Assembly (NCBI GenBank): GCA_048939465.1
Contig: JBHLPL010000030.1
Span: forward strand, 1-18,930
Direction: 5' to 3'
Length of the DNA: 18,930 nucleotides
DNA from: Promethearchaeota archaeon
GTDB lineage: Archaea > Asgardarchaeota > Odinarchaeia > Odinarchaeales > JBHLKK01
A model generated the notes under the pieces. It did not search any database. It had not been told where the DNA came from and saw only the letters and a list, made by a program, of their open reading frames with translations. Shown here piece by piece: positions 1-17,801 of the stretch (the first letter of the stretch is position 1; each line of letters starts with the position of its first letter). Both the position numbers and the translations under genes were made by a program.

Positions 1-1
1 A

Positions 2-520
2 TCTTGTACTTTGTCCTGGATTTGCTTCATACTGACAGACTCTTTAATAGTGGCTCTTCTTGCCGCGGCCACAGGAGTCCTCGTTGACGCAGACCACCTT
101 GTGGATTATTTACTGTTCAACGGCAGACTCGATAAAGACAGTTTCAGGAAGCTTCTTTCAGGAGGCCATTTCCAAGAATCAAGAAAGCTCTATTTGCCTT
201 TGCACTCGTATGAAGTGCTTATACCAATTTGGATATTTGCATCAATATTCAATGCCTCAGTAGCTGCCACATGGATTAGCATCTCATTTGTCATACACCT
301 TGTTCTTGATCAAGCGGCCTACGCTCCCAGAGCTCTTACATATTTTGCCATATACCGAGCCATCAATTCTTTTGACCTCACCTTTCTCAATCCTGCCAGC
401 CTGATAGCATTGAGTCCCAATCAAATGTCAATAGGAATTGCGATTATTGGACCTCTTGCCCCAATCAGACCTCAAAGAATGACCTTAAACGTGGTCAATT
501 GCAGACCCAATTTGTTGTGA
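2..520 (+). CDS. Membrane protein, putative metal-dependent hydrolase (YdjM/LexA-binding inner-membrane hydrolase-like); 5' end lies outside the window
   Basis: The frame is open from position 2 (tct tgt act ttg...), so the gene is probably truncated. Hydrophobic helices carry the metal-ligand-like motifs DADH, LHSYE and HLVLD, followed by YFAIYR. The last ~40 aa look unconserved. Confidence 0.6.
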   Translation, partial: SCTLSWICFILTDSLIVALLAAATGVLVDADHLVDYLLFNGRLDKDSFRKLLSGGHFQESRKLYLPLHSYEVLIPIWIFASIFNASVAATWISISFVIHLVLDQAAYAPRALTYFAIYRAINSFDLTFLNPASLIALSPNQMSIGIAIIGPLAPIRPQRMTLNVVNCRPNLL

Positions 521-961
521 TCAACCCTGCAGGATTCCTTTTCTTTTCGGTTGAATGACTTTCCTCAGTCTGGATTCATGCAAAATGTTTGAGTCGGAAT
601 TCCCGCGTTTTTTCCCCTTGTCTTGGCGGAGCCCGATCCTCATAGGAGATGAGACATTTGGGATGGCAGATTCCTGATAAGATAATTCCACAGTCTGCAT
701 GTCGAATATGATGGCCATGCCAAAAATACCAACACCGAATTCGCCTTAGTTTCGTCAAAGAGCGTAAATCTTGATGAAGGGTGACCCTTTTATGGGGAAG
801 GGGCGTCGGTGCTTTGCAACTTTTGATGTTAGCGCCGAACAAGAATTCATTTGAAAGAAATGGGGCCAATCCGATGCGATTTTCAGAGAAGTAAGCACTT
901 AGATAGCGGAAGAGATCAAATATCAGTCTAGACGTACGAAAAGAGTAAGGGGACGATTAGA

Positions 962-1252
962 ATGCTTACAATAGAAGAAATATCAAGGATGATTTCTAGA
1001 TTAAGAGAACCTAATCTACAGATGAAGTTTGTTAAGGCATTTCAGATTTTGGCGGAAATAAGAAGAGAACTGAAGGCGCATCAACGCATATTGGATTTAA
1101 CACAGGATTATTTGAACGCCTTTTTAGAGGAACTCACGGAGAAAGTCACGATAGAAAGACTGAAGTCTATGAAGGAAGACTTCAGCCTTGCAAAGGTAGA
1201 CAGACTTGTGAAGACAGCTGATGACAGAATAAGAATAGTGAGCGGTAATTGA
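962..1252 (+). CDS. Hypothetical 96-aa all-helical protein
   Basis: ATG preceded by a purine-rich SD-like AAGGGGA. E/K/R/L-rich amphipathic helical composition. A pyrimidine-rich tract follows the stop. No family recognised. Confidence 0.7.
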   Translation: MLTIEEISRMISRLREPNLQMKFVKAFQILAEIRRELKAHQRILDLTQDYLNAFLEELTEKVTIERLKSMKEDFSLAKVDRLVKTADDRIRIVSGN

Positions 1253-1376
1253 AAAACTTCCTTCTATTCTTTTGGTGATATAAACAGTCTATTATAATAT
1301 ACCTCTTGTAATAGCAGCTTGCATTTAGCTCTTAGGATTTCTAAAGGAATGGTAGGACTACGGGACTGTAAGATAA

Positions 1377-1386
1377 GTTATATAAC
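1377..1386 (+). promoter_or_regulatory. Probable TATA box (palindromic GTTATATAAC) for the SDR-OYE pair
   Basis: TTATATAA preceded by purine-rich AGATAAG (BRE-like), about 80 nt upstream of the SDR start. Confidence 0.4.
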
Positions 1387-1464
1387 CTTGGTCCAACGAG
1401 AATCACCAGCAATATTGCATATCAAGGAAATTTAAGTTTCAAACTCTATAGGAGGGCAGTAATA

Positions 1465-2256
1465 TTGAGACTTAAGAATAAGATAGCCGTAATTACAGGA
1501 GCTGCCTCAGGCATAGGAGCAGCCACGGCCAAGTTGTTCGCGAAGGAAGGGGCAAAAGTTGTGGTGGCAGACATAAATGAGGAACTCGGACAGAAAGTAA
1601 CAGAAGAGATCAGACAAATGGGAGGAGAGTCCGTTTTTGTCAAGACAGACGTGACAGTATGGAATGACGCTCAAAACCTCATGGAGAGCACTGTCAAGGC
1701 TTTTGGTCGAATCGATGTTCTTCATAATAACGCAGGGATTGGACTGATCGGAACAGTGCCGGAGACCACTGAGGAGATGTGGGACAAAACAATAAGCATC
1801 AATTTAAAGGGCGTATTCCTGTGTTCCAAGGCAGCAATTCCTTATATGAAGAAGCAGGCCGGAGGAGTAATCATAAACACAGCATCCAACTGGGGGCTGG
1901 TGGCCCAACCCGGATGGGCAGCATACTGTGCTTCCAAGGGAGGTGTGGTTATGTTAACAAAGGCCATGTCCATAGACCATGCCAAAGACAATATTAGAAT
2001 AAATGCACTGTGCCCGGGGTATGTAGACACACCGCTTCTAAGAAAAGCAGTTGCACAATCGAAAAACCCAGAAAAGGAATGGGAAGATATGGGCAGGCTA
2101 GCGCAACCTGAGGAAATGGCGTACGGTGCTTTGTTCCTGGCAAGTGATGAATCGTCTCACGCAGTCGGTAACCTATTGGTAATTGACAACGGTGAGACCG
2201 CCAGAGGGGGGCAGGTGAAAGACCACTTGCCCAAAAAAGCTTCCAGGGCTCAATAA
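1465..2256 (+). CDS. Short-chain dehydrogenase/reductase (classical SDR, probably NAD-preferring)
   Basis: TGAASGIG Rossmann motif, Asp36 at the end of beta2, NNAG, Ser141, Y154-CAS-K158, and the PG motif. TTG start after SD GGAGGG. Confidence 0.95.
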   Translation: MRLKNKIAVITGAASGIGAATAKLFAKEGAKVVVADINEELGQKVTEEIRQMGGESVFVKTDVTVWNDAQNLMESTVKAFGRIDVLHNNAGIGLIGTVPETTEEMWDKTISINLKGVFLCSKAAIPYMKKQAGGVIINTASNWGLVAQPGWAAYCASKGGVVMLTKAMSIDHAKDNIRINALCPGYVDTPLLRKAVAQSKNPEKEWEDMGRLAQPEEMAYGALFLASDESSHAVGNLLVIDNGETARGGQVKDHLPKKASRAQ

Positions 2257-2269
2257 GAAGAGGAGCGAG

Positions 2270-3241
2270 TTGATGATATTGATTGGTCTTCTGGACCCTT
2301 TGGATATAAAGGGAATAAGGCTTAAGAACCGAATTGTGATGCCTCCCATGGCTACGGAATTAGCAACCACGAGAGGAGCTGTGACCGACAGTCTTATCGA
2401 CCATTATATCAGAAGGTCTAAGGCTCTGGGCTTGTTAATAGTAGAGCACAGCTACGTATCCTTGGGTGGGAAGCTCAGCGAAAGGCAACTGGGGATATAC
2501 GATGACATCCTCATCCCAGGATTAAAAAAACTCTCAGACGGTATCCATGCCATGGGTACTCCAGTCGTGATTCAAATCAATCACGCAGGAATGGCGGGGA
2601 CGGAACCGGTTTCTCCTTCGTTGAATGAAAGAGCTAGAGAACTTCAAGAACAAGAGATTGGCATTCTGGCTGAAAGCTTTGCCGCAGCAGCCAAGAGAAG
2701 CATCACAGCCGGTTTTGATGGAGTTGAAATTCATGGAGCTCACGGTTTTCTCCTGTGCCAATTCTTTTCTCCTCTGACCAACAAACGCCATGACTTGTAT
2801 GGAGGTTCTCTAGAAAATAGAATGAGATTCCCGATGGAGATTGTTAGAGAAGTTAAGAAAGCCATAGGAGAAAAGATACTCCTTTACCGTTTGGGTTCAA
2901 CAGACCTGGATCCTGCAGGAATCCAAATCGAGGAGTCACAGAGGTTTGTCAAGGAGTTGCAGAGGGCGGGCGTAGACATAATTGATGTGTCTGGAGGTAT
3001 GTGTGGCAGTAGGCCGACTCAAATACAGGACAGACAAGGTTACTTTGTCCCTCAAGCACAGCAAATCAAGGACGTAGTAGATGTACCAGTTATCGGTGTT
3101 GGTGGAATTAGGGATCCCGAATATGCTAATGAGCTTATACAGAAAGGTCAGATCGATTTGGTAGCGGTCGGTAGATCACTTCTAAGAGACCCGGATTGGG
3201 CTGTGAAGGCCGTTAGAACCTTGGAAAAAGACTTACTCTGA
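2270..3241 (+). CDS. NADH:flavin oxidoreductase, old yellow enzyme family
   Basis: LKNRIVMPPM, QINHAG, GFDGVEIHGAHG, NKRHDLYGGSLENRMRF, GVGGI and VAVGRSLLRDPDW. SD GAGGAG lies 13 nt after the SDR stop region. Confidence 0.93.
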   Translation: MMILIGLLDPLDIKGIRLKNRIVMPPMATELATTRGAVTDSLIDHYIRRSKALGLLIVEHSYVSLGGKLSERQLGIYDDILIPGLKKLSDGIHAMGTPVVIQINHAGMAGTEPVSPSLNERARELQEQEIGILAESFAAAAKRSITAGFDGVEIHGAHGFLLCQFFSPLTNKRHDLYGGSLENRMRFPMEIVREVKKAIGEKILLYRLGSTDLDPAGIQIEESQRFVKELQRAGVDIIDVSGGMCGSRPTQIQDRQGYFVPQAQQIKDVVDVPVIGVGGIRDPEYANELIQKGQIDLVAVGRSLLRDPDWAVKAVRTLEKDLL

Positions 3242-3281
3242 ACTCTAGAAGTCATGAAAAGACCCTTTAGATTATTTCTTC

Positions 3282-3624
3282 TTAGCCAGAGTGAACAAGT
3301 CTGGCTTTATTGTAGCATCCAACAGTCTTCCTGTTATCGCCCAGTTTCTTGTACGTAGTTCCCATATTGTGCCAGACTGGCCCATGCTTAGTTTCGATTC
3401 TCACAATCTTCCTAGAGCAATCAAAAGCCTTCTGGTATTCACCCAGTCTCCCGTAAACAACTCCCAGGTTGCCCCCATGTCGAGTATCCTTTTGGATCGA
3501 TCTTTAATGCCCTTCTATAATCTTTGATAGCTTCTTTGTATTTCCCTTGCCTGTAACTCATGTTTCTTCTCTGGAAATAACCTTTTGCCGAGATTCTTCC
3601 ATTCATTTTTGTCACAGGTGTCAC
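3282..3624 (-). pseudogene. TPR-repeat protein (about 3 TPRs) with a single-base frameshift
   Basis: Frame 1 gives AKGYFQRRNMSYRQGKYKEAIKDYRRALKIDPK. Removing one G from the G5 run at 3472-3476 continues as TWGNLGVVYGRLGEYQKAFD...PVWHNMGTTYKKLGDNRKTVGCYNKA to TAA at 3284-3282. Confidence 0.8.
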
Positions 3625-3737
3625 AATGATTCTTCAAAACCAACCAAGTATTCTTTGTGGGTCTAATTTAAAAGGAAAAGGAGGTATTCAGAATTTGGTA
3701 GCAATCTAGGAATTGCTACATGTTGGGAGGTGTACTA

Positions 3738-4886
3738 TTGCCCGGAAGAGCTGGGGGTCGTGTAGATTTCCTGGAAGGAAATGAAGCTTGTGCAGAGGGG
3801 GCAATCGCTGCGAACTGTAAGTTTTTTGCATTTTATCCAATTACTCCTGCAAGGGAGATTGGTCGTATAATGGCTACAAAGATGCCAAAGAACGGTGGGA
3901 TATCAATTCAGATGGAGGATGAGATAGCGTCATTATCCACGGTCATAGGCGCATCTTGGGCAGGTCTTAAATCAATGACTGCAACAGCAGGTCCTGGATT
4001 CAGCCTGATGCAAGAAAATATAGGATACGCTGTTCAAACCGAAACACCTTGTGTCATAGTGGATATTCAGCGAGGAGGGCCGAGTACAGGGCAGGTAGGT
4101 GTTCCTCTCCAGGGAGACGTAATTCAGTCAAGACGGGGATCTCATGGAGAATATCCGATTGTTGTGCTCGCACCGTCTTCACCACAAGATATGTTTGATC
4201 TGACCATCGAGGCGTTCAATTTGTCAGAGCTTTTGAGAATGCCAGTAGTCTTACTGGCAGACGCCTATGTCGGATTCATGAGAGAGAAGGTTATCATCCC
4301 GCCCAAGAGCAAAATCCGACTGATCAATAGAAAGAAACCAAAAGAAGCCAATGAAACAGCTTTTTTTCTTAGTGAGGATGTAGCCCCTATGCCTGAATTC
4401 GGCACTGGATATAGAACTCATGTCACCGGTTCATGTCACGATACTATGGGCTATCGAAAAACAAGCGACCCCAAGGATCTCGACTATTTGATTAAGACGA
4501 TTTATCGAAAGATCGAGAAGCGTTTTGATGAAATAACCAGGGTCGACCTAGTCAACGTGGAGGATGCTAAAACCGTACTACTTACATACGGCACTTCATT
4601 TAGATCTGCCTTGTGGGCAATAAAAAAGGCAAGAGAAGAAGGAATTAGGATCGGCGGTATACGACTGGTTACCCTGTGGCCCTTTCCCAGAAAGAAAATT
4701 GCAGAAATTGCCGAGCAGGTTGACAGCATTATAGTTTTGGAGAATAATATGGGCCAGATATTAGATTATGTAAGAAGTGTTGCTTGTAAGATGACAGAGA
4801 TCAAATTCCTCCCGCCAGAAATCCTGGGAAGTGTTCATAATCCAAAGCACGTGTTAGATTTCGTGAGAAGGGAGACAGGAAGATGA
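3738..4886 (+). CDS. korA: 2-oxoacid:ferredoxin oxidoreductase alpha subunit (KorA-like)
   Basis: GNEA, YPITP, MEDEIA, GPGFSLMQE and QRGGPSTG motifs. The likely start is TTG at 3738, 5 nt after a strong SD GGAGGTG (3726-3732). The ORF track starts at 3720. Confidence 0.92.
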   Translation: MPGRAGGRVDFLEGNEACAEGAIAANCKFFAFYPITPAREIGRIMATKMPKNGGISIQMEDEIASLSTVIGASWAGLKSMTATAGPGFSLMQENIGYAVQTETPCVIVDIQRGGPSTGQVGVPLQGDVIQSRRGSHGEYPIVVLAPSSPQDMFDLTIEAFNLSELLRMPVVLLADAYVGFMREKVIIPPKSKIRLINRKKPKEANETAFFLSEDVAPMPEFGTGYRTHVTGSCHDTMGYRKTSDPKDLDYLIKTIYRKIEKRFDEITRVDLVNVEDAKTVLLTYGTSFRSALWAIKKAREEGIRIGGIRLVTLWPFPRKKIAEIAEQVDSIIVLENNMGQILDYVRSVACKMTEIKFLPPEILGSVHNPKHVLDFVRRETGR

Positions 4887-5716
4887 CTCGTAAGTTTCAA
4901 CATCCCTTGATCAAGTATATTCGACCAAGAGCTCTGCCTTCCCCCCATTGCCCGGGTTGCGGCGATGGGGTTATCGCCCAGTGCATTCTTAGAGCAATAG
5001 ACGAACTGAAACTGGATTTTAAGAAGATCGTCTTTGCTTCCGGGATAGGATGTGCTGGGTGGATTCCAAGTCCTCTTTTTAATTCTGATGTGATTCATAC
5101 ACCTCATGGAAGGCCGATCGCCTTTGCTACAGGCGTGAAGCTTGCGAAACCAGAGCTGAACTTGGTCGTTGTTTCCGGAGACGGAGACCTAACAGCAATT
5201 GGAGGCAACCACCTTATTCACGCCGCCAGAAGAAACATAGGGCTTATGGTAATCTGTGTGAATAACTTCATCTACGCCATGACTGGAGCGCAAGCTGCTC
5301 CAACAACGCCCTTTGGACTTAAGACCGACACAACCCCCTACGGGAATCCAGAACATCCCTTTGATTTATGCAAGCTTGTCGAGGGGGCGGGGGGATCTTA
5401 TGTGGCAAGATGGGCGACAATCCACGTAAGACAGCTCGTAAGATCCATTAAGAAAGGACTTCAGAGGAAGGGTTTCGCGTTTATTGAAGTGATTTCACCA
5501 TGTCCTGTTCGATATGGCCCGCTACTCGATATGAGGAAGCCCACTGAGATGATAGAATGGCTACGTAATATTACCGTTACCAGAGAGAAAGCCAGAAATC
5601 TAACACCGCAAGAGCTTGGTCAAAGGATTACAGTGGGAGAGTTTGCTGATAGGAGGATCCCAGAATTGACTGAGCAACACAGATTGACAGGAGAAGGCGA
5701 AAATGGTCAGAGCTGA
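4883..5716 (+). CDS. korB: 2-oxoacid:ferredoxin oxidoreductase beta subunit (TPP-binding)
   Basis: CPGCG, GIGC, HTPHGR, GDGD...N TPP motif, YAMTGAQ and SPCP. ATGA overlap with the alpha stop. Confidence 0.93.
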   Translation: MTRKFQHPLIKYIRPRALPSPHCPGCGDGVIAQCILRAIDELKLDFKKIVFASGIGCAGWIPSPLFNSDVIHTPHGRPIAFATGVKLAKPELNLVVVSGDGDLTAIGGNHLIHAARRNIGLMVICVNNFIYAMTGAQAAPTTPFGLKTDTTPYGNPEHPFDLCKLVEGAGGSYVARWATIHVRQLVRSIKKGLQRKGFAFIEVISPCPVRYGPLLDMRKPTEMIEWLRNITVTREKARNLTPQELGQRITVGEFADRRIPELTEQHRLTGEGENGQS

Positions 5717-6311
5717 AATTCGAATTGTGGGGTCCGGGGGACAGGGAGCCATTACAATAGGAAGTCTACTGGGAAGAGTGGCTACACTCTATGAGAGAAA
5801 GGTTGCGGCACAAACACACTCTTACGGAGCTGCGGTGAGAGGCGGGATTATTTGGACAGAAGTAGTGATATCTGACGAAGAGATTGATTATCCGGGTGTG
5901 ATAGAAACAGATGCTATCATCGTAATGTCACAAGAGGCTGCTGACAGATACGCTAGCGATATTAGAGAGGGTAGTACGGTAATAATTGATTCAAGTTTAG
6001 TACAGAAACCTTCAACTGGAGGTGTAGAGCCCTATCAGATACCAGCGTCCGAACTCGCAGAAAGAAAGCTGGGGAATGGTCTTTTTGCCAATATGATTCT
6101 GCTGGGGTTCCTGGTCGGACTAACAGGAGTCGTCAATAAGAGCAGTCTTACGAAAGCTGTGAAGGAAGGTATGAGATTATCTGACCTGAATATTAGGGCT
6201 CTTGAAATTGGTTTTACTCTTTCAGAAAGCAAGGAAAGCTCGGAGGGACGGATTAATGGGCAAGAACCAGCAAGCAGTGAAGAGGAAAAGGTTCGACATC
6301 GTCATAGATAG
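5703..6311 (+). CDS. korC: 2-oxoacid:ferredoxin oxidoreductase gamma subunit
   Basis: EIRIVGSGGQG, SYGAAVRGG, EIDYP and ANMILLG. Overlaps the beta gene by 14 nt. Confidence 0.92.
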   Translation: MVRAEIRIVGSGGQGAITIGSLLGRVATLYERKVAAQTHSYGAAVRGGIIWTEVVISDEEIDYPGVIETDAIIVMSQEAADRYASDIREGSTVIIDSSLVQKPSTGGVEPYQIPASELAERKLGNGLFANMILLGFLVGLTGVVNKSSLTKAVKEGMRLSDLNIRALEIGFTLSESKESSEGRINGQEPASSEEEKVRHRHR

Positions 6312-6501
6312 AGAACTCTGCAAAGGATGCAATATTTGCGTCTATATGTGCCCTACAGGTGTGTTGAAGATGTCCGATAGTCCAACTGATAAGGGAGTCC
6401 ATGTTGCAGAGGTCAAATACCCAGATCAATGCACAGGGTGTTTGGCGTGTGAGTTGAATTGCCCTGATTTTGCGATTTATGTTCGCAAGAAAAAAAAGTG
6501 A
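6256..6501 (+). CDS. korD: 2[4Fe-4S] ferredoxin-type delta subunit of the oxidoreductase
   Basis: CKGCNICVYMCP and CTGCLACELNCP. ATG at 6256 follows SD GGAGGG. The ORF track start at 6202 is probably too long. Confidence 0.9.
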   Translation: MGKNQQAVKRKRFDIVIDRELCKGCNICVYMCPTGVLKMSDSPTDKGVHVAEVKYPDQCTGCLACELNCPDFAIYVRKKKK

Positions 6502-6505
6502 ATAT

Positions 6506-7006
6506 CTACCAACGATCCTTGCTCGAAATCTCGTGAATGGATTTTCTGCCCCGAGGCTCTGGCTCCTCATCAGGATATCCTAGAGGGGTCAATGCAACAA
6601 CCTTTATGTTATCCGGAATTCCCAAGACCTTTTTCACTCTGTCCTCTTCATAATGCTTCCCTATCCAGCAAGTTCCCAGCCCTAATTCAGCTGCGGCCAA
6701 CATCAAGTGTTCCATGCTAATCGCCAAATCAACTGCATAGTAGGGTATATCATGGCTATGGCCGGATTGCTCTGGATCGGCACAGCCGACTATGATCAAT
6801 GGTGCTTCAGCAACCCAATCGCGGACCCCAAGCTTCTTCTTTGTATTCTCATCCTTGATTACAATGTATCTCCAGCATTGTTTGTTTGCCCATGACGGGG
6901 CAAGACGGGCAGCTTCCATCACGTACCTAAGCTTCTCTTCCGGAACGGGGTCTGTTTTATACTTCCTGATGCTTAATCTCTTGCGAACCACATCCATGAA
7001 CTTCAT
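6506..7006 (-). CDS. Nitroreductase family protein
   Basis: RLSIRKY, AARLAPSWANKQCW, MEHLMLAAAELGLGTCWIG and LGYPDE. Confidence 0.93.
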   Translation of the reverse strand: MKFMDVVRKRLSIRKYKTDPVPEEKLRYVMEAARLAPSWANKQCWRYIVIKDENTKKKLGVRDWVAEAPLIIVGCADPEQSGHSHDIPYYAVDLAISMEHLMLAAAELGLGTCWIGKHYEEDRVKKVLGIPDNIKVVALTPLGYPDEEPEPRGRKSIHEISSKDRW

Positions 7007-7174
7007 TCACTCATTCCCTCCCAGAACACTACTATAGGAGTGAGTCAAATATAATGCTACCTGCACGGCTGTTTGCTGTGGAAAGTTACTTAAGGAATTA
7101 TAGCCAAATATCTGTTTCCGAGCCTCGAAAGAGAGCCTGATGAATGATATCACGGTCGCTGAGGAGTTGATTGA

Positions 7175-8467
7175 GTGAGTGTCGTAGATAGGATATTGGG
7201 GAGAGGCCCCGAAGACATAGCAAAGAAGCATGTAAGGAAGGGAAGGGAATACGTTTCCAAGAACAAGTGGGATAAGGCACTCATTGAATTTGAGAAAGCA
7301 GCAGAACAATTCCTCAAGGCAGGGCAATTCGAGGAAGTAGAGAGGAACTATTCGAGAGCAACTAAGTGCAGCCTGCGGGAAAAGAATTTCAAGAAAGCCT
7401 TGGAGAATAAGCATAGAGCTGCAATTCTAAGGCTGTCTTTGGATGATCTTATAGGCGCAGCCAAGTACTACGCCGCAAATGAAAAACTCGCTTCGCAGAT
7501 TAGATTATACCAATTCGCACTTCTTTATCTCAACTTGAACGGATTATGCTATCTTGTTGCTGGCAACTACACGAAGTTCTCTAAATGTGAGGAGAAAACG
7601 AGGAAGTATCGCTCTCTTCTAAATGAAAGGACCGAAGATCACAACGTAATCTCGAAAATCTGGAACAGCATTACAAAGCGTGATGCTGATGAGCTTGGGA
7701 TGGCAAAGAAAGTATTCAGAGAACTGAAACTGAGCCCACAGGAAAGAAGACTTGTTGAAAACGGGATTACATTAGCGGAGAAGGCACTGAGAGTGAATCT
7801 AAGTCTTACGGTTGAGAGAAAGGAAGTAGGTGTTGGAGAACATTTTGGCTTGGTGGCCAGCTTGAACTCGCCTGAAAAACTCTCGTTGATGGAATTCACT
7901 ATGAAGTATCCTAGGAACATGGCCATGGTTACTGATTTCGCTTTGCCCAGAGATTCGGTTTCAAAGGTCAAGATCGATGCAAAAGCAAAAGGGAGCTTAC
8001 CTGGAAAGATTCTGATCGGGCCAATGAAACTTTTATGCAAGGACAGAGCTGAAAGAGTTCTCATGGTTGTATCAGATCAGATAGAGCTGAGTATTCACCC
8101 GCCTGAATCGATCGTTGAGATACAGTTCTCATTACACGCCAATATCGTTTCTGTGGGCGAAGAAGTTGAAGCTACCATGGATTTAAGTAACATGAGTAAA
8201 GGCGAAGCGACCAACATTGTCGCCCGATTGGATATTCCTGAAGAAATCGAAATTATCCAAGGCACTATTGAAAAGAGAATACATGCTTTGGCCCCTGGCG
8301 AGAGAATGAGTTTTCTCATGGTGCTGCAGCCGAACAATGTCGGAGATTTTCAGATTGATGGTAAGGTCACGTTTGATGGTCCCAAAAAGAGTAATCAAAC
8401 GAATCAGGCGATCCCTGTAGAACTAAAAGTTGAACGAAGATCAATAGAGTCTTCACCGAAAGGCTAA
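7175..8467 (+). CDS. SNAP/TPR-like helical domain fused to two Ig-like beta-sandwich domains (BatD/CARDB-like); no signal peptide
   Basis: aa 1-205 are helical with repeated A..F..AA..F..AG patterns. aa ~206-309 and ~311-420 have alternating beta strands with the VGE, LSN..GEA.N and LAPGE motifs. GTG start after SD GAGGAG. Confidence 0.75.
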   Translation: MSVVDRILGRGPEDIAKKHVRKGREYVSKNKWDKALIEFEKAAEQFLKAGQFEEVERNYSRATKCSLREKNFKKALENKHRAAILRLSLDDLIGAAKYYAANEKLASQIRLYQFALLYLNLNGLCYLVAGNYTKFSKCEEKTRKYRSLLNERTEDHNVISKIWNSITKRDADELGMAKKVFRELKLSPQERRLVENGITLAEKALRVNLSLTVERKEVGVGEHFGLVASLNSPEKLSLMEFTMKYPRNMAMVTDFALPRDSVSKVKIDAKAKGSLPGKILIGPMKLLCKDRAERVLMVVSDQIELSIHPPESIVEIQFSLHANIVSVGEEVEATMDLSNMSKGEATNIVARLDIPEEIEIIQGTIEKRIHALAPGERMSFLMVLQPNNVGDFQIDGKVTFDGPKKSNQTNQAIPVELKVERRSIESSPKG

Positions 8468-8518
8468 AAGGTAGAATTCAAGGGAGGGCGATTTCAGCCT
8501 CACGTAATGTGACAAGAA

Positions 8519-8535
8519 TATTCCCCACGGGAATA
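8519..8535. promoter_or_regulatory. Inverted repeat TATTCCC-CAC-GGGAATA upstream of SAM synthetase (candidate operator)
   Basis: Perfect 7-bp arms in the intergenic region, just upstream of a TATA-like TTATAT at 8552-8557. Confidence 0.35.
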
Positions 8536-8639
8536 AAATTCACAGTAAGACTTATATGATAACGCTTCTGTGCATAAATATCGTTTGGAAATGGATCAGC
8601 GATGTAGGGTATCTGTCAATCGAAAAGAAGGGAAGAGAA

Positions 8640-9848
8640 TTGAAGAATATCTTGGTGGGAGAATTAAAACAACCGGCTCTAGAAGATCAAAGAATGGAAA
8701 TCTGCGAAAGGAAGGGTATAGGGCATCCAGATACTATATGCGATGCCATAATGAATGATGTTTCGATAGAGCTTTCCAAAGTATATCTGAGGCGATTCAA
8801 TGACGTCTTACACCACAACATAGACAAAGGACTACTTGCAGCCGGAGAAACAGAAACGGATTTTGGGGGAGGCAAAGTCACAAAACCCATGCTTCTGGTT
8901 TTTGGCGATAGAGCTACGTTTGAGGTCGGAACTGAGAAAATCCCAGTTGAAGAGATAACCCTGAGAACTGCCAAAGATTGGTTTAGAAATAATATTAGAT
9001 TTGTAGATCCGGAGAAACATGTGAACTATCAGATTGAGCTGAAGAGGGGTTCTGAAGCACTGACAGACATATTCAAGAGAAAAGGTAAATTCAAAGGAGC
9101 CAATGATACATCAGCAGCTGTCGGTTTTGCGCCGATGACTGAAACAGAGAATATTGTTTTGGAACTGGAACGATTCCTGAACTCGGCAAAATTCAAAAAG
9201 GACCATCCGGAGTCCGGAGAAGATATAAAGGTTATGGGGTTGAGGAAGAACAATGAGCTCTTTCTCACCGTCGCTATGGCATTTGTTGATAGGTTTGTTG
9301 GAAGCGAGGATTCCTATTTCAAGAGAAAAGACGAAATCCTCGAAGAAATAAAGGAATTCGTTCCACCAAAGATAAGCCTAGAAAAGGTCAACTACTTCCT
9401 TAACACCTTGGATCAACGAGGCAGAGGAAAAAGCGGAGTCTATTTAACAGTTCTCGGTACCTCTGCCGATGGTGCAGACTGTGGACAGGTCGGAAGAGGG
9501 AATAGACCGAACGGCGTAATTGCACTGAACAGACCTTCTTCTGCCGAGGCCGCAGCAGGTAAGAATCCGGTCAGCCATGTTGGCAAAATTTACAACGTGG
9601 TAAGCTATAGAATAGCCGACCAGATATACCAGAGAGTCCCTGGCATAAAAGAAGCGTACGTATGGCTCCTAAGCCAGATAGGTAACCCCATCAATGAGCC
9701 ACTAATAGCGTCTGCCCAGATCATACTAGAAGAGGGAGGCGCTCTCGACAGTATTTCGAAAGAAGTCGCTAATGTAGTTGAGGATGAGCTGGATAATATA
9801 GATAAATTCTGCGACGATTTGGCATATGGTAGGGTTTCAGTATACTAG
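8640..9848 (+). CDS. mat: Archaeal-type S-adenosylmethionine synthetase
   Basis: [36 protein letters not shown] and [17 protein letters not shown]. The likely start is TTG at 8640 (MKNILV...), matching the usual N-terminus. The track start at 8556 is probably too long. Confidence 0.95.
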
Positions 9849-9875
9849 ACCGCTGAGACAGTTGGATTCGCACAT

Positions 9876-10322
9876 TCAATCGCTAATCCTAATTGTCTCC
9901 CACTTGATTCGTTTGCTCTCTAGTGCCCGCTTTATCTTCTTCTGTTCTACAGTAAGTGCTGAATCTCCGGTCTTTATATCCATCAAAACAACCGTAATTG
10001 GTCTGTCTTTTCTATTATCCTTTATATCGGTATAACCATCAAAAATCACGTAATCAATGGGAGATCCTATGAATCTCGCGTCAGCAGGATTGTACTTAAA
10101 TTCTGCGAAGAATGGGATCATCTGTTCCACAATCCTACCCTTAAGACTTGCTCTACTTCTCCTCAACACATCGTCTCTCAGTTGGGCCTCCATTTCCATG
10201 AATCTTTTCTCGGCTCTGATTTCAATCTCTCGCTTTGCCAATCCTCGCTCTCGAACTAGGAACACGACGACTAGAGCGAGAATTATGATAGTTGAAACGA
10301 GGGCAATTGTCAGGACATCCAT
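9876..10322 (-). CDS. Membrane-anchored endonuclease related to archaeal Holliday junction resolvase (PD-(D/E)XK, Endonuc_Holl-like)
   Basis: N-terminal TM helix and coiled linker, then SRASLKGRIVEQMIP, ARFIGSPIDYVIFDG and DIKTG. The likely start is ATG at 10322. Confidence 0.88.
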   Translation of the reverse strand: MDVLTIALVSTIIILALVVVFLVRERGLAKREIEIRAEKRFMEMEAQLRDDVLRRSRASLKGRIVEQMIPFFAEFKYNPADARFIGSPIDYVIFDGYTDIKDNRKDRPITVVLMDIKTGDSALTVEQKKIKRALESKRIKWETIRISD

Positions 10323-10478
10323 AAAGGCACCCCATTTGGTAGTAGCAAAGAGTTGCATTTAAGCCTAGTGGAATTGATAACGATGACTGAGTCCCGGCTC
10401 CGTTTTACCCCCTTTCTGAGCAAAAGATATATGGAGAAGTAAGCTAATACTTGAATAATATAATTAGAGGGGGCATCA

Positions 10479-12848
10479 GTGGAAATAGAGTTCTGGGCTT
10501 TTGATGTCGGGCAGATAACCAGAGATAGATCTCCTCAAATCCTACTTTGGGGTATTGATCCAGGAGGGCAGAGGCTGTTAATCATCGATGATACGTTTAG
10601 ACCATACTTCTATGTTCTGCCAAGAGACGGAGTTGACCCACGTTCATTAATGGAAGCTATTAGGACTCTGTCGGAGCCTGAGTCTCAAATAGTGGGCATT
10701 GAGGTTGTAAACCGAAAGCTTTTTGGCAGGCTTTTAAGGGTTCTAAAGGTTACGTGTCAGAATCACGAAGGATTACAGACCCTTGCTTCTAAGATTTCCG
10801 AAGAGAGATCAGTGAAGAATTGCTACGAGGCAGACATAAGGTTCTACATCAGATACCTAATCGATAAGGCGATTGTCCCATGCCAATGGTACAGAGCTCA
10901 TGTAGAAAGAGTGAAAGAACCTTCAGGAATCATGGTGGATGCGATTTATAGGCTTTTGAAAAGCCCCGTACCGTCTACCAGAGATGAGCTTCCCAGCTTA
11001 AGGATCTTGGTTTTTGATATGCGAGACTATGTCTCAACCGGTATCGTGAATCCTGAAAAAGATCCGGTGATTGTAGTAACCGCCGCAACAAACACCGGAG
11101 AGCTGAAACAGTTTGCAGCAAAGGATCATAATGACAACCTTCTCTTAAATGATTTTGTAGGTTATGTCAGGCAGTTTGATCCAGATTTTATGCTTGGATA
11201 TTATTCCAACTTCCACGACTTGCCCTTCATTACAAGAAGGGCAAGAATACTGAAGGCCAATCTTGCCATTGGCAGAGACAGCTCTGAGCCGCACCCTAGC
11301 GTTTACGGTCATTATTCTATTGCAGGCAGGGCCAATATTGATTTGTATGATGCCACAGAATTGATAGCTGCAGTAAAGCTGAAAACCCTAGAGAATATAG
11401 CAGACTTCCTGAAAGTCTCGCCTCGAAAAGACCGTACCATTATTGATGACATCCAAATAGCAGAGCACTGGGACGACGAAAAGCTGAGACCCAAACTCTT
11501 GAGATACTCCAAAGAGAATTCTGAGTCCATTAAGGGAATAGCTGAGAGATTGCTGCCATCTATTATATCAATGGCTCAGGTCACTGGTATGCCTCCGGAT
11601 CAGGTTATGCGCGCAGGCGCAGGCTTTAGGGTAGAAAATATACTCCTTCGAGAGGCTTATCAAGCGGGAGAATTGGCACCGAGCAGAGTCGAGCACCCCC
11701 CGACCACATATGTCGGAGGTTTCGTTCTAGAGCCTAAGGAAGGCATATACAGTAATATAGCGGTCTTTGACTTCAGCTCTATGTATCCAAGTCTTATGAT
11801 AAAATATAATCTGTCTCCCGACACTTACGTATCGCCCAAAGAGAAATTCTCTGGGGAAGAGATTACCACGCCAGAAGTTGGGCATAGGTTCAGAAGAGAA
11901 CCGCCAGGCTTCTATAAGCGTGTTTTAGAGAGGCTTCTGAGAGTTAGAAAAGAGATAAGAGCCAAAATGAAGAACTTGGGTCGGGACAGCACGGATTATA
12001 CAATGCTCAACGAAAGGCAGAAAGCTGTAAAGATCATTACGAATGCCACCTACGGCTATTGCGGTTGGAGGGGAGCGCGGTGGTATCTAAGGCCTGTTGC
12101 TGAAGCAACAGCTGCTTGGGGGCGAAACATAATAAAAAGGACTGTTGAGATCGCCGAAGAGACCGGATTAACCGTTATATATGGTGATACTGACAGCATT
12201 TTCATTTCTCATGATCCTAAGAAAATGAAGAGGTTTGCAAAGAGAGTCGAGAGTGAGCTTAGACTTAGGATCAAACCTGATAAGATATTTTCACGTATTC
12301 TTTTCACAAAGGCTAAGAAGAAGTATGCAGGGCTTCTCAAGGACGGGGCCCTAGACATCACCGGTTTTGAAGTGGTTAGAGGAGATTGGCCCGCAATAGC
12401 AAGAGAAGTTCAAGAGGAAGTAATCCGGCTTCTGCTGAAAGGCAAGGCGGTCAGTAAGGCTGTAAGATACGTAAGAGGTGTAATCAAGAAGATCCAATCA
12501 TACGAGATTCCCTATGAGAAGTTTGTGATATGGGAGACTTTAACGAAACACCCCTCTGAGTACAAAGTCAGGGCTCCTCATGTTAGCGCTGCAACTAAAT
12601 TGATAGAAGCCGGAGGAAGGCTTGAAGAAGGATCTAAAATTGGTTACGTTGTTCTAAAAGGGACAGGTCGATTATCTGACCGTGTAGCTCCCTACAATCT
12701 TGCAGCTAAGGAGGAGCTAGACGTCGGCTATTACGTAAACAATCAAATTGCCCCGGTTGCCTTGAGAGTACTGGAAGTCTTTGGTGTGACGAAAGAACAG
12801 CTTATCGAAACGCCCCAAAGATCGTTAGATGAGATTCTTGGTGATTAA
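10479..12848 (+). CDS. polB3: Family B DNA polymerase, crenarchaeal PolB3 type, with degenerate exonuclease motifs
   Basis: DFSSMYPS, KIITNATYGY, YGDTDS, KKKY and GFEVVRGDW, plus PolB3-typical segments (SVYGHYSIAGR, PEVGHRFRR). GTG start after SD GAGGGG. No intein. Confidence 0.93.
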   Translation: MEIEFWAFDVGQITRDRSPQILLWGIDPGGQRLLIIDDTFRPYFYVLPRDGVDPRSLMEAIRTLSEPESQIVGIEVVNRKLFGRLLRVLKVTCQNHEGLQTLASKISEERSVKNCYEADIRFYIRYLIDKAIVPCQWYRAHVERVKEPSGIMVDAIYRLLKSPVPSTRDELPSLRILVFDMRDYVSTGIVNPEKDPVIVVTAATNTGELKQFAAKDHNDNLLLNDFVGYVRQFDPDFMLGYYSNFHDLPFITRRARILKANLAIGRDSSEPHPSVYGHYSIAGRANIDLYDATELIAAVKLKTLENIADFLKVSPRKDRTIIDDIQIAEHWDDEKLRPKLLRYSKENSESIKGIAERLLPSIISMAQVTGMPPDQVMRAGAGFRVENILLREAYQAGELAPSRVEHPPTTYVGGFVLEPKEGIYSNIAVFDFSSMYPSLMIKYNLSPDTYVSPKEKFSGEEITTPEVGHRFRREPPGFYKRVLERLLRVRKEIRAKMKNLGRDSTDYTMLNERQKAVKIITNATYGYCGWRGARWYLRPVAEATAAWGRNIIKRTVEIAEETGLTVIYGDTDSIFISHDPKKMKRFAKRVESELRLRIKPDKIFSRILFTKAKKKYAGLLKDGALDITGFEVVRGDWPAIAREVQEEVIRLLLKGKAVSKAVRYVRGVIKKIQSYEIPYEKFVIWETLTKHPSEYKVRAPHVSAATKLIEAGGRLEEGSKIGYVVLKGTGRLSDRVAPYNLAAKEELDVGYYVNNQIAPVALRVLEVFGVTKEQLIETPQRSLDEILGD

Positions 12849-12936
12849 AGTACTCAACATCAGCGGAAGCCCAACTGGTCAAGCCTCGACTCCATTAAGA
12901 ATGAACGAAAGCTTATTTGATTGGAAGAGCGCATAA
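12841..12936 (+). pseudogene. Probable 5' remnant of a flavodoxin-like / NADPH-dependent FMN reductase gene
   Basis: GTG overlaps the polB stop (GTGATTAA) and reads MIKVLNISGSPTGQAST, which fits the family N-terminus MKVL.ISGSP...G[NS]T. The frame stops after 31 codons. Confidence 0.45.
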
Positions 12937-13219
12937 TCGGAAAATTGCATTTTTCGATTATATAATCGAAAGACACCCTAAGTATCGCGAGGGAAAGCAA
13001 GAGACTGGCATCGAGGAAACCAAGAAAAACCCGGCTGTCAAAAGCGATCTTTTCGAAGATAGAATCAAAGAACGTGCGAAATGCCATAGCGAGAAAGAGG
13101 GAGATTGTTCCGCCTCCGAGGAAGAAACAGAATGTTGAAAGCCAAGCTATTGGATATTCTTCTCAATTTAGAATAAGATTTCAAAAAGCTCGACACAAAC
13201 GGAGTTTTGGGGTGAGATT

Positions 13220-14149
13220 GTGGTCCGTAAGCCATATAGCGAATTAATGAGAAGGTTTTTCGACGGAAGATTTACATTTACAGGAGAGATTGAGCCTGGA
13301 AAAACGGCAGATCTGACAGGTGTTATCGAAGCGGGAAGACTGTATAAGGGAAGCGTTGCAGCAGTAAATATTACAGACTGCCCCATGGCTTCCGCCTATA
13401 TGAATAGTCTGGTTCCTTCTTTTATTGTTCAGAAGGAAGTGGGAATTGAGACGATATATCAAGTTACCTGCCGCGATAGAAATAGAATAGCCATTTTTGC
13501 CGACTTGCTGGCTGCAGGAGCCCTCGAAATTGTCAATATCTTGGCATTAACAGGAGATCACACAACTCGTGGAGATTCTCCAGAGGCCAAACCCGTGTTT
13601 GATCTCAACTCTGTAAGTCTTATCCGCATGATAAGAAAGATGACAGATGAGGGGAAAGATCTTAATGACAACGAAATAGAACGGCCTCCTAGATTCCATG
13701 TAGGTGCTGTGGCCAATCCCTGCGCAAATCCGATGGAGCCAGAAATACTCAAGATTGAAAAGAAAGTGAATGCTGGTGCCGAATTCATCCAGACACAGGT
13801 CGTCTATGATATAGAAAGAGCGAGGCAATTCTTGAATAATGTTGAACATCTGGATGTTCCTGTCTTAATAGGTATTTTTCCTCTCAAATCGTCCAAAGCA
13901 GCGTCGTGGATGAGTCGATACTGTTCTGCGGTCAACATACCAGTTGAGCTAATGGATAAGCTGTATAAGGTCGAGAAGATAAGTGATAAAAATCTTCAAG
14001 AGTCTCACTACAAGGAGATTAACGCAGATTACTTCGGGGATTTTGTTCGCGAGCTGAGGAAAACCACGAAAGCTGCAGGCTGTCATATCATGGCGGCTGG
14101 ATTTGAGGAGATAGCCAAGCACATAGTAGAAGCGTCCGGAGTAGAATAA
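13220..14149 (+). CDS. metF: Methylenetetrahydrofolate reductase (MetF-like, FAD-dependent TIM barrel)
   Basis: TGEIEP, NITD, TCRDRNR, LALTGD and KKVNAGAEFIQTQ. GTG start after SD GGGGTGA. Confidence 0.9.
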   Translation: MVRKPYSELMRRFFDGRFTFTGEIEPGKTADLTGVIEAGRLYKGSVAAVNITDCPMASAYMNSLVPSFIVQKEVGIETIYQVTCRDRNRIAIFADLLAAGALEIVNILALTGDHTTRGDSPEAKPVFDLNSVSLIRMIRKMTDEGKDLNDNEIERPPRFHVGAVANPCANPMEPEILKIEKKVNAGAEFIQTQVVYDIERARQFLNNVEHLDVPVLIGIFPLKSSKAASWMSRYCSAVNIPVELMDKLYKVEKISDKNLQESHYKEINADYFGDFVRELRKTTKAAGCHIMAAGFEEIAKHIVEASGVE

Positions 14150-14201
14150 ATTTATAAAATGCTTGGTTATCATTATTCTATTCATCAAGGGGATTTTGAT
14201 T

Positions 14202-15245
14202 GTGACAGTACGAAAGGATATGCCGCTATCCCCAATTGAATTGGCGCTGCTGACAGAGTGCCCACGCGAAATACTACTGTGGGCACCATTATCTAATTTA
14301 GAACGGCTTGGTATTGTGGGAAGAAAGGAAATAGAGTATACGTTAGAGGCCAAAATTGAAGGGAAGAAAGAGACTCACACCTTCTCTGAAATAACGTATG
14401 TGTTTTCAGATGGGTTCGTCAGACTGCTGCAGGAAGCTCTGAATGAGAAAAAGGCCAAGAAAATTGTTAAGCTAATGTACCGCAAAGACTGGACTTGCTT
14501 TGACAATATTGAAGATAGGAATGCGGGAAGAATCGACTGCTATTGCACAATCAAAGACAAGAAGAAAGGACCAATCATAGGGGGAGTCATTAAGAGTATG
14601 ATTGGTGACAGCATTGTGACGCCATGTGAGGCAGTCTTGATTATGGCACTGGCCCGTCCAATCCTGCCGATAGGTGATGATAAGATTGGAAGGAGATATA
14701 CGGCAGGAGGAGACCTTTATGCAAGTGTTTTGACGAAGTTCCTTGAGTTTATGCCTGGAGAGTGGATCGATAAAAGAGCGGTAAGCTTCGAGAATGCTAT
14801 TAATCGGGTTGCTGAGTGGCTATGTGTTCGAGGTCTTCTTGATGATGACTCCTTGAAGGCTACAAAAAAAGGCTCCAGAATTAAGACTGATATTTTGGGA
14901 AGACTAGAAGGTGTTGCCAAATCAAAGGATACACAGCTGATTGATCGATATAGGCCTTGGATCCTGGCTGCGGGACTCATACCATCAGACGTCATGCGGG
15001 AGAGGGTGCCGATAGACTGGTTTATGCTTGCATATGCAACCCTGTATATGGAATTCTGTTCAAGAAACAAAGATGGAGAGTGGTTCATAATTCAGAGAAA
15101 CTTTGGAAGTGGATCCGGTCAGCCCCCCTACATGAACAGGCTATACGGGGTTCAAAATCGGAAAAAATGCCTTAAACTGATAAAACCATTGGACGAGGAG
15201 ACTGAAGCAAGGGTATATGAAAGAATGGGAATCAAAATCAGATAG
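14202..15245 (+). CDS. Uncharacterised soluble protein with weak GPP34/GOLPH3- or DUF2207-like motif pattern
   Basis: Long open frame. The likely start is GTG at 14202, 8 nt after AAGGGGA (the track gives 14163). It contains LSPIELALL, LLQEAL and RVAEWLCVRGLL. The family call is tentative. Confidence 0.7.
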   Translation: MTVRKDMPLSPIELALLTECPREILLWAPLSNLERLGIVGRKEIEYTLEAKIEGKKETHTFSEITYVFSDGFVRLLQEALNEKKAKKIVKLMYRKDWTCFDNIEDRNAGRIDCYCTIKDKKKGPIIGGVIKSMIGDSIVTPCEAVLIMALARPILPIGDDKIGRRYTAGGDLYASVLTKFLEFMPGEWIDKRAVSFENAINRVAEWLCVRGLLDDDSLKATKKGSRIKTDILGRLEGVAKSKDTQLIDRYRPWILAAGLIPSDVMRERVPIDWFMLAYATLYMEFCSRNKDGEWFIIQRNFGSGSGQPPYMNRLYGVQNRKKCLKLIKPLDEETEARVYERMGIKIR

Positions 15246-15248
15246 GTG

Positions 15249-16160
15249 TTAGATTCTTGATTTGAGTTTCCATAATCTCTGCGCAAGTGTCTTTATATAT
15301 TCTCCATTCTCGAGTCTGCCAACCCATCCAGTGGGTATGCCTTTGAAACCATGATATGCCCCAGCTATTGCTCCTGTCATTGCCCCTATTGTGTCTGTAT
15401 CGCCTCCCAGGCTGACGGCATAGACCACAGCTGATTTAAAGCTGTCGAGATGAGACAGGAAAGAGTAGATTGCAGTGGGAACCGAACGGAACGCCTCAAT
15501 GCCGTTTCCCAGTTCTACGATAACATCCTTCTTCCGCGGGGATCCGTTCAGAAGGTCTTGGATCATTCCAAGCTTCCGTTGATAGATTGTTTCTTCGGTT
15601 AGTCTGCTGAGTTCTGTTATAATCCTTAAGGGCTCCAGTGACGGGGGTATTTCGGGCAAGGCCAAAGCGATAGCACAGGCCTGCAGAGCAGCTCCTTCTT
15701 TTCCCAGTTTGTGGGAGTGAGTAATCTGACTAGAGGAATATGAAATGGATCTCAATCGATTGAAATCACCGTGATACAACAGCCCGATGGGGGCAATCCT
15801 CATGGAGGCTCCGTTCCCAAATGAGCCGTTTCCATCGAATAATCTCTTGCTTGCCTCGTTCCACTTCTCTCCAGACATTATCAGACCAAAAACGCGTGGT
15901 GGACCTAAACCATAGCCCCTTGTCGGATCAAAATTCCTTATGAAAGTATGAGCCATATGCTTTCCATCGAATCCCCTCTTTTCAATAAGGGATTCAGCTA
16001 TCCCTATCATCATCTCAGTGTCGTCTGTATAGCTTCCTTCAAATTCAAAATCCTCGTTTCTTGATATTCCTGATCCCTCTCGGGGTCTTCCCAGAGCGTC
16101 TCCTATGGCAGAACCTAACATACATCCGAGGAATTTCGATTCCAGAATTTCATCATTCAA
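15249..16160 (-). CDS. ADP-ribosylglycohydrolase (ARH/DraG family)
   Basis: GDALG, YTDDTEM, GNGASMRIAP, SSQITH and GGDTDTIGAMTGAIAGA metal-binding motifs. TTG at 16160 lies 5 nt after SD GAGGTGA (16172-16166). Confidence 0.93.
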   Translation of the reverse strand: MNDEILESKFLGCMLGSAIGDALGRPREGSGISRNEDFEFEGSYTDDTEMMIGIAESLIEKRGFDGKHMAHTFIRNFDPTRGYGLGPPRVFGLIMSGEKWNEASKRLFDGNGSFGNGASMRIAPIGLLYHGDFNRLRSISYSSSQITHSHKLGKEGAALQACAIALALPEIPPSLEPLRIITELSRLTEETIYQRKLGMIQDLLNGSPRKKDVIVELGNGIEAFRSVPTAIYSFLSHLDSFKSAVVYAVSLGGDTDTIGAMTGAIAGAYHGFKGIPTGWVGRLENGEYIKTLAQRLWKLKSRI

Positions 16161-16177
16161 ATGAATCACCTCAAAGC

Positions 16178-16960: not shown

Positions 16961-17033
16961 TCACAGAGCAATCTGAAAAATAATATATCTACAGGCATTA
17001 TAATTTTTCCAAAGAAACGATCCCCGTCCTTTC

Positions 17034-17501: not shown

Positions 17502-17801
17502 GTTCTTTCCCTCTCGAATTAATACTAGCTTGAGCCTCGAGATATTTAACACTATTGATTTTCCTTAAAGGATGAGCAGAAGCACACCTGCTCCTCTAGG
17601 ATTTGTGTCCAAAAGATTTCAGTCGGTATTTAGAAATCGAAGCGTCTGGTTAAGAAGGATGCCGGTAATGGAGTAGCTCGGAACCCAAAGGACCGAACGT
17701 AGGCAGCAAAAGCAGAGAAGGAAGTAAAAATCGTCTTAGTATAAAGGAATAACTTGAACCACTTACGCATCAAAAGATAAGGGAGATCCGGCAGGTTTTT
17801 G

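Follow-up and report, generated by a model that had tools for sequence, protein, structure and literature searches.

A SNAP/Sec17-Like Helical Domain Fused to Two Immunoglobulin-Like Domains in a Protein Family of Asgard Archaea

We analyzed an 18,930 nt stretch of the genome of a Promethearchaeota archaeon (GenBank assembly GCA_048939465.1, contig JBHLPL010000030.1, positions 1 to 18,930; hereafter, the window), focusing on an open reading frame (ORF) of 430 amino acids (aa) on the plus strand (7175-8467, stop codon included). The reading we favor, with some confidence but well short of certainty, is that this ORF encodes a soluble, non-enzymatic protein of three domains, consisting of a solenoid related to SNAP (NSF attachment protein)/Sec17 and a pair of immunoglobulin (Ig)-like domains, and that the protein serves as a cytoplasmic scaffold or adaptor and not as a working SNAP. 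The helical domain (aa 1-206) is a probable remote homologue of the C-terminal ~200-240 residues of SNAP/Sec17. The remainder (aa 207-420) consists of tandem prokaryotic Ig sandwiches of the CARDB/DUF11 type, the second of which is closest to the TRAP-beta type.

The ORF and Its Domain Layout

The ORF starts with GTG at 7175. This start is supported because close homologues of the 430-aa protein likewise begin with MSVVD. The following features were assigned:

7161-7166 (+): GAGGAG, a ribosome-binding-site-like motif read from the sequence, 8 nt 5' of the GTG start
7175-8467 (+): whole ORF, from a family spread across Asgard archaea and built as SNAP-like domain, Ig, Ig (homologues and AlphaFold2 (AF2) model)
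7175-7213 (+): short hydrophobic N-terminal segment, then G-R-G-P-E, aa 1-13 (50 N-termini compared)
7175-7792 (+): SNAP/Sec17-like helical-hairpin domain, aa 1-206 (profile, Pfam and structure searches)
7793-8107 (+): Ig-like beta-sandwich 1, aa 207-311, with the near-invariant G282-P283 (model, conservation)
8108-8434 (+): Ig-like beta-sandwich 2, aa 312-420, of the CARDB/DUF11/TRAP-beta type (Pfam, structural match)
8435-8467 (+): ten-residue C-terminal tail and stop codon (alignment of the closest homologues; low predicted local distance difference test score, pLDDT)

The C-terminal tail has no counterpart in the aligned closest homologues. Two ORFs on the opposite strand (7007-7414 and 7639-8064) were interpreted as shadows of the gene on the plus strand, which is conserved.

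The protein was modeled with AF2 on an alignment of 38 family members (pLDDT 94.9; predicted template modeling score, pTM, 0.84). This model replaced a poor one from an earlier run with five close homologues only (pLDDT 62). It comprises a short helix of lower confidence (residues 3-8), six regular 17-residue helices between residues 12 and 128, four or five shorter, irregular helices up to residue 206 that constitute a C-terminal bundle, and two beta-sandwiches (208-310 and 313-420). An earlier sequence-only reading of the window had outlined a SNAP-like domain at aa 1-205 (7175-7789). The model shows one all-helical domain there, and the proposed boundary fits the change from helices, which extend to residue 206, to beta strands, which begin at 208. 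The strings quoted in that reading are all present in the ORF: WDKALIEFEKAAEQFLKAGQFEEVERNYSRATKC at aa 32-65, AAKYY at aa 95-99 and, in the C-terminal part, LCYLVAGNYTKFSKC at aa 124-138, TEDHNVISKIWNSITKRDADEL at aa 153-174, and LSPQERRLV at aa 186-194.

The helical repeats are packed through conserved alanines (16, 35, 42, 82, 83, and 95) in the manner of the tetratricopeptide repeat (TPR) clan, and Pfam families TPR_1 and TPR_2 match the protein weakly. No enzyme family matched in Pfam, and the conserved columns consist of these packing alanines and of the glycine, proline, and asparagine of the Ig fold. No signal peptide and no convincing hydrophobic or membrane segment were found in any of the 38 members. 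The helical domain is basic (net charge +15 in this protein; family mean +6.7), and the Ig part is acidic (family mean -4.8). A comparison of 50 loci revealed an N-terminal pattern shared by several lineages, M-(F/S)-x-F-(L/F)-(K/R)-x-D-P, that is, a hydrophobic stretch and then D-P. The version in this protein is SVVDRILGRGPE, and in one large lineage the motif is shortened to MGKDP.

Similarity to SNAP in Sequence

SNAP (PF14938) is the best helical Pfam family for the protein, yet the match lies below the Pfam threshold. Across the family, PF14938 matched 27 of the 38 members at E < 0.01 (best E 9e-8), and some relatives do exceed the cut-off. When the profile of the 38 members was compared to PDB sequences, it retrieved Sec17 (2.2e-14), alpha-SNAP (5e-13 to 1.6e-12), and gamma-SNAP (1e-10), and the best natural TPR protein outside the SNAP family followed at 2.5e-6. 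SNAPs were thus ahead of all natural TPRs by at least four orders of magnitude in E-value. This argues against an alternative that we consider unlikely, namely that the domain is an ordinary TPR-clan solenoid whose resemblance to SNAP is convergent or due to clan ancestry only, making the protein a generic TPR plus Ig scaffold. The alternative does draw support from the same search, in which designed consensus TPR proteins, helped by the summed scores of their many repeats, equaled or outranked the SNAPs.

The best stretch on Sec17 placed profile positions 48-188 on Sec17 130-266 (HMMER). It keeps to a single register throughout the non-TPR C-terminal helices, which again speaks against an ordinary solenoid. 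The C-terminal register that had been proposed by eye was recovered here: LC..L of the family falls on GLCQL of Sec17, and the next helices fall on SRE...L...D.E.L.

Other searches were less productive. Comparing the single protein to PDB sequences (phmmer) returned nothing useful, and a profile of five close homologues returned only TRAP-beta (E 0.1) and gamma-SNAP (E 6). Word-indexed searches with N-domain and full profiles yielded a few TPR proteins and close homologues only; eukaryotic SNAPs that lack shared 5-residue words are invisible to such searches, so that these blanks are uninformative.

Similarity to SNAP in Structure

We searched the model against 48,161 representative chains with a method independent of Foldseek. 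The first rank was taken by gamma-SNAP (Z 19.1, root-mean-square deviation (rmsd) 3.3 A, 195 residues) and the second by Sec17 (Z 17.3, 204 residues). Pins/LGN came next at Z 16, but with an rmsd of 6 A over 155 residues. HAP40, a derivative of SNAP, was among the top six (Z 14.8 over 203 residues). A second look added further Sec17 chains (Z 16-18.5) and the alpha-SNAP of the 20S complex (Z 15.5). Overall, the SNAP matches spanned 195-207 residues at 3.3-4.1 A and extended to model residue 207, taking in the C-terminal bundle; the model has the twisted hairpin sheet and C-terminal helical bundle that characterize the SNAP fold.

For the ordinary-solenoid alternative, the score of Pins/LGN is a point in favor, as is a note of the search tool that a best Z of ~14 is frequent for helical repeat models owing to their arrangement alone. 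Counting against it, the SNAPs are 2-3 Z units ahead, their rmsd is far lower, they cover the full domain, and HAP40 ranks high as well. The same order was obtained from the ESM Atlas, an independent model and search: using the Atlas's own model of the protein, the first matches were to its own family, followed by a eukaryotic alpha-SNAP cluster (template modeling (TM) score 0.69 over 201 residues), with generic TPR clusters at 0.46-0.60.

The PDB profile search, the 48,161-chain search, and the ESM Atlas therefore agree in placing SNAP, Sec17, and gamma-SNAP above generic TPRs. At the level of the domain, this supports the proposal that aa 1-205 are SNAP-like. The outcome that the sequence-only reading had named as refuting it, matches confined to generic TPRs and no SNAP-type bundle in the model, did not materialize.

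The Ig-Like Domain Pair

The Pfam family TRAP_beta (PF05753) marginally passed its cut-off of 22.4 bits (22.5 with the full chain, 24.1 with aa 206-430). Matches to DUF11, BatD, and NPCBM_assoc were below their thresholds, and a profile of the Ig part retrieved TRAP-beta only from PDB sequences (E 0.01). In structure, the second sandwich superposed on the lumenal domain of TRAP-beta with Z 15.4-16.1 (rmsd 1.6-2.1 A, 113-117 residues), above its matches to other CARDB, pilin, and macroglobulin domains (Z 12-13.4). The pair as a whole matched bacterial and archaeal CARDB/DUF11 tandems with TM 0.72-0.76 over 203-209 residues, and also the two C-terminal barrels of transglutaminases and macroglobulin-type domains. 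The most conserved residues of the entire protein are located in the Ig pair: G282-P283, the invariant N339, and the nearly invariant G363 and K367. They are typical of the fold and do not form a catalytic set.

A solenoid followed by Ig-like (ASH-type) domains is also the order found in the large TRAPP subunits (TRAPPC8/9/10/11/13), so that the protein might be a relative of these, acting as a tether or as an accessory of guanine nucleotide exchange factors with small GTPases. We hold this to be highly improbable. Feature neighbors in the ESM Atlas included TRAPPC11, TRAPPC8, and Trs120 clusters (0.75-0.80; leads only), Foldseek matched chain 7u06_A of yeast TRAPPII (E 5e-9), and TRAPPC13_C weakly matched six of the 38 members. 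But the TM score with 7u06_A was 0.26 over 626 columns, meaning that there was no global superposition; no TRAPP chain was among the 50 best in the structural second look; the Pfam TRAPP matches were all weak and of the general Ig clan; and the Ig pair superposed far better on the CARDB/DUF11 tandems. Roadblock/LC7-Ras fusion GTPase genes do occur near family members (L065:5827-6873 (-) and L064:3176-4159 (+)), divergently adjacent in the first of two lineages and at a distance of 3 kb in the second. Given the abundance of small GTPases in Asgard genomes, their presence within 7 kb in three of ten lineages is probably close to chance expectation.

Since the closest relatives of the Ig pair are surface-type CARDB/DUF11 tandems and the lumenal domain of TRAP-beta, export by an unrecognized route, with these domains placed at the cell surface, was considered too. 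We give it very little credence: signal peptides and membrane segments are missing throughout the 38 members, the N-terminus is a short motif directly followed by the solenoid, and SNAP-type TPR domains are cytosolic.

Proposed Function and Points against It

The protein would act in the cytoplasm as a scaffold or adaptor. Its basic, SNAP-like solenoid could grip a partner, either acidic or helical, with its groove, by analogy with SNAP and HAP40, and the rigidly attached, mostly acidic Ig pair might serve as another surface for binding. A membrane or a partner may be contacted by the short hydrophobic N-terminal segment. The analysis shows the fold and the domain architecture, whereas this mechanism is inferred.

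A number of observations weigh against this reading. The PF14938 score was 17.4 bits for the whole protein and 21.1 bits for aa 1-205, below the Pfam cut-off of 25. A profile of the aa 105-206 sub-bundle retrieved no SNAP from PDB sequences, finding consensus TPRs and TTC21B instead; the alignment of this fragment was remade by MAFFT and is possibly poorer than the full one. Because this profile misses SNAPs, the sequence signal appears to be spread over the domain and not concentrated in the terminal bundle. PF14938 also gave matches in four of 14 prokaryotic control genomes, passing the cut-off in two. These three results also favor an ordinary TPR solenoid. That the domain is homologous to SNAP, and did not converge on it within the TPR clan, is probable, not proven. 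Regarding location, the sole ground for placing the protein in the cytoplasm is that no signal peptide is detectable, and CARDB/DUF11 domains are normally extracellular. Partner binding is putative. The helical domain has few conserved surface residues, the best being K22, K34, E190, and a basic pair at 140-141, so that surface conservation lends weak support to a single conserved ligand. Finally, neighboring genes differ by lineage, and gene context yields no functional lead.

Differences from SNAP

Full-length SNAP has ~290 aa. Alignments with the helical domain begin at SNAP residue 50-53, or at 84-95 in gapless versions, meaning that the first 50-85 residues of SNAP are missing; the domain is indeed shorter than eukaryotic SNAPs, as had been remarked from the sequence. 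The first SNAP helices, which bear a membrane-inserting hydrophobic loop, are replaced in this family by the short hydrophobic N-terminus. At the other end, the chain passes from the last helix (206) straight into the first Ig domain and has no free C-terminal tail. The last ten residues of SNAP and its conserved penultimate leucine, Leu294, are required for the stimulation of NSF (PMC2139964). The corresponding end of the helical domain is occupied here by the Ig fusion. Because the parts that SNAP uses are thus missing or blocked, SNAP-like action on an NSF-type ATPase would be impossible.

We searched the genome, which is 91% complete, for the partners that SNAP works with. Two Cdc48-type proteins were the only NSF-like ATPases. 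The SNARE family PF05739 had no match at E <= 0.1, although divergent SNARE-like proteins could escape such a search, and synaptobrevin (PF00957) was matched at chance level only (E 0.035; the same kind of match occurred in seven of the 14 control genomes). Cdc48 is universal in archaea, so its presence is uninformative. Across 23 loci from ten lineages, no Cdc48 or other AAA ATPase gene was linked to a family gene. A complex prediction for the helical domain and the N-domain of one of the two Cdc48 proteins of this genome scored 0.00 without controls and counts neither way.

These data bear on a possible role of the protein as functional analogue or precursor of SNAP, set on the membrane by its N-terminus, holding a SNARE-like or ESCRT-III-like bundle in its groove and recruiting a Cdc48-type ATPase. 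Several features would suit such a role: there is a relationship to SNAP in fold and sequence, the helical domain shares its basic character with the SNARE-binding face of SNAP, the genome has the two Cdc48-type ATPases, and the hydrophobic N-terminal motif, found in several lineages, lies at the end of the solenoid that points to the membrane in SNAP of the 20S complex. The truncated N-terminus, the occupied C-terminal end, the lack of a detected SNARE or synaptobrevin domain, and the absence of linkage to Cdc48/AAA genes all count against it, and we regard it as very unlikely. Neither this Cdc48-dependent role nor the TRAPP-like tether received positive support. An evolutionary extension is similarly hard to credit and a shade more speculative: that the family represents a pre-eukaryotic SNAP adaptor, proximal to the membrane and binding with its groove, which would hand helical bundles to a Cdc48-type ATPase, with SNAP arising as the Ig domains were lost and the N-terminal helices and free tail acquired.

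The sequence-only reading had suggested that a true archaeal SNAP would mark eukaryote-like membrane traffic. That claim could not be sustained: the PF14938 score is below the cut-off, the N-terminus and free tail of SNAP are missing, no SNARE domain was found, the only candidate ATPases are the common Cdc48s, the aa 105-206 profile missed SNAPs, and PF14938 occurs in other archaea and in bacteria. PF14938-positive TPR clusters were found in Bathyarchaeota, Methanobacteriota, and other archaea, PF14938-positive TPR proteins also occur in bacteria, and because of this occurrence outside Asgard archaea the domain is no eukaryote signature in itself. The protein is not a SNAP orthologue.

Family and Distribution

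The closest homologues are 74-82% identical and come from metagenome-assembled genomes labeled Hodarchaeota and Promethearchaeota. An exhaustive HMMER search of 1.84 billion representatives yielded ~30 full-length relatives of 410-450 aa; the remaining matches covered the Ig part alone. Members with a named source were all from Asgard archaea (Thor-, Hel-, Hod-, Prometh-, and Ranarchaeia), and carry existing annotations as hypothetical proteins or TPR proteins. A sample of 301 genomes from across the Asgard phylum gave a family match at E <= 1e-10 in 236 (75 of 90 in the high-quality subset), mostly with one to three copies per genome; in some families these matches are weak and possibly reflect one domain only. 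The gene is conserved at full length across Asgard genomes.

The assembly containing the window (1.96 Mb, 152 contigs) has one full-length family copy. The DNA is present in mangrove and sediment metagenomes, and no RNA data set carrying it was listed among public runs.

Literature searches for an Asgard SNAP/Sec17-like protein or for the TPR-Ig layout found no description of the family, and SNAP goes unmentioned in a 2026 preprint on structural clusters shared by Asgard archaea and eukaryotes. As far as these searches show, the fusion of a SNAP-type TPR domain with Ig domains is apparently undescribed.

Gene Context and Related Loci

Within the window, Pfam assigned only housekeeping and metabolic functions to the neighbors of the gene, in agreement with the earlier remark that both an NSF-like ATPase and a SNARE are missing from the window. 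They include three subunits of pyruvate:ferredoxin oxidoreductase (POR), a nitroreductase on the other strand, an archaeal S-adenosylmethionine (SAM) synthetase, an Hjc-like nuclease, the DNA polymerase PolB, MTHFR, an ORF without a Pfam match, and an ADP-ribosylglycohydrolase. The SAM synthetase ORF (8556-9848 (+)) is 430 aa long as listed, with ~29 residues before the Pfam domain; judging from a relative at locus L001 that has 402 aa, its true start is probably farther downstream. PolB (10479-12848 (+)) is a family-B DNA polymerase whose exonuclease domain was matched at 1.9e-21, and the ORF without a Pfam match at E <= 0.1 (14163-15245 (+)) has 360 aa. In related genomes, a canonical TPR protein of 509 aa lies between PolB and MTHFR (L001:13793-15322 (+)); the window has no ORF of such size at this position.

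The 23 loci revealed no conserved neighbor beyond close relatives. Neighbors recurring within lineages were an AMP-phosphorylase-like gene (f9 and f23) and, in f6, an AlaX-like gene and a 244-aa helical protein. The latter is convergent with the SNAP-Ig gene (L054:8258-8992 (-), and the same position in L055-L059) and has a weak PF14938 match (E 1.5e-4). A standalone all-helical protein of 252 aa is also encoded in the genome analyzed here (L008:1330-2088 (+); G000 contig C135). Its only Pfam match was TPR_12, and hhalign aligned it to aa 49-183 of the family profile with a probability of 95%. No pairwise BLASTP similarity was detected between the 252-aa and the 244-aa protein. By features, the nearest named ESM Atlas cluster was a 245-aa cluster from Thorarchaeota, 43% of whose members have PF14938.

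Several further genes were recorded in a Helarchaeota locus, L003. The product of a gene at L003:1-1711 (-) has 687 aa and combines an adaptor mu-homology domain (PF00928) with a CLIPPER/DUF11 match. This gene adjoins one for an Arf-like GTPase, and both are 6-7 kb upstream of the family member. The family gene is tightly flanked on the same strand by genes for a 273-aa protein (L003:7126-7947 (+)) and a 793-aa protein (L003:9243-11624 (+)), the second of which begins directly at the stop of the family member. Neither flanking protein had a Pfam match or a detectable homologue in the genome containing the window.

In one lineage, a prenyltransferase-like gene is located upstream of the family gene. 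A role like that of a prenyltransferase alpha subunit was rejected, as SNAPs and not alpha subunits top the structure searches.

Significance and Comparison with Known Systems

SNAP and NSF belong to the core of the machinery for membrane fusion in eukaryotes, and no archaeal relative of SNAP has been described as far as the literature searches show. A SNAP-related domain in most Asgard genomes is a concrete candidate for the origin of the fold of SNAP, and is moderately interesting with regard to how this machinery originated, within the limits that domains of this type are also present in other archaea and in bacteria and that the parts of SNAP that work with NSF are missing. SNARE-type traffic in archaea is not shown by this protein alone, because nothing links it to membranes, SNAREs, or ATPases. 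The protein could be expressed, and partners could be sought in cultured Asgard strains.

Four groups of known proteins can be set beside the family. Standalone SNAP-like helical proteins of Asgard and other archaea (~245-252 aa) are likewise all-helical and TPR-like, and partly PF14938-positive, but have no Ig domains. The large TRAPP subunits resemble it as cytosolic proteins in which Ig-like domains come after a solenoid; their size is several times greater, they show no significant sequence match, and their global structural match is poor. The CARDB/DUF11 tandems and TRAP-beta (PF05753; 8rjc_6, 8b5l_v) have the same fold as the Ig pair and the same pattern, N-x-S/G-x-A ... P-E ... G-T-x-x-K ... 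L-x-P-G-E. Unlike TRAP-beta and the surface CARDB/DUF11 proteins, the family protein lacks a signal peptide and membrane anchor, and whereas the TRAP-beta domain is lumenal, the Ig pair is joined here to a solenoid of cytosolic type.

The fourth group is the SNAP family itself (alpha-, beta-, and gamma-SNAP and Sec17; PF14938; 1qqe, 2ifu, 3j96, 9cru), together with HAP40 (6x9o_B). In contrast to SNAP, the protein is shorter at the N-terminus by ~85 residues, or by ~50 if internal gaps are allowed, is fused to two Ig-like domains and therefore has no free tail with a penultimate leucine, and is encoded by a gene without links to any AAA ATPase gene in a genome in which no SNAREs were found. What it has in common with SNAP is a twisted stack of TPR-like hairpins closed by a small helical end bundle, forming a basic solenoid.

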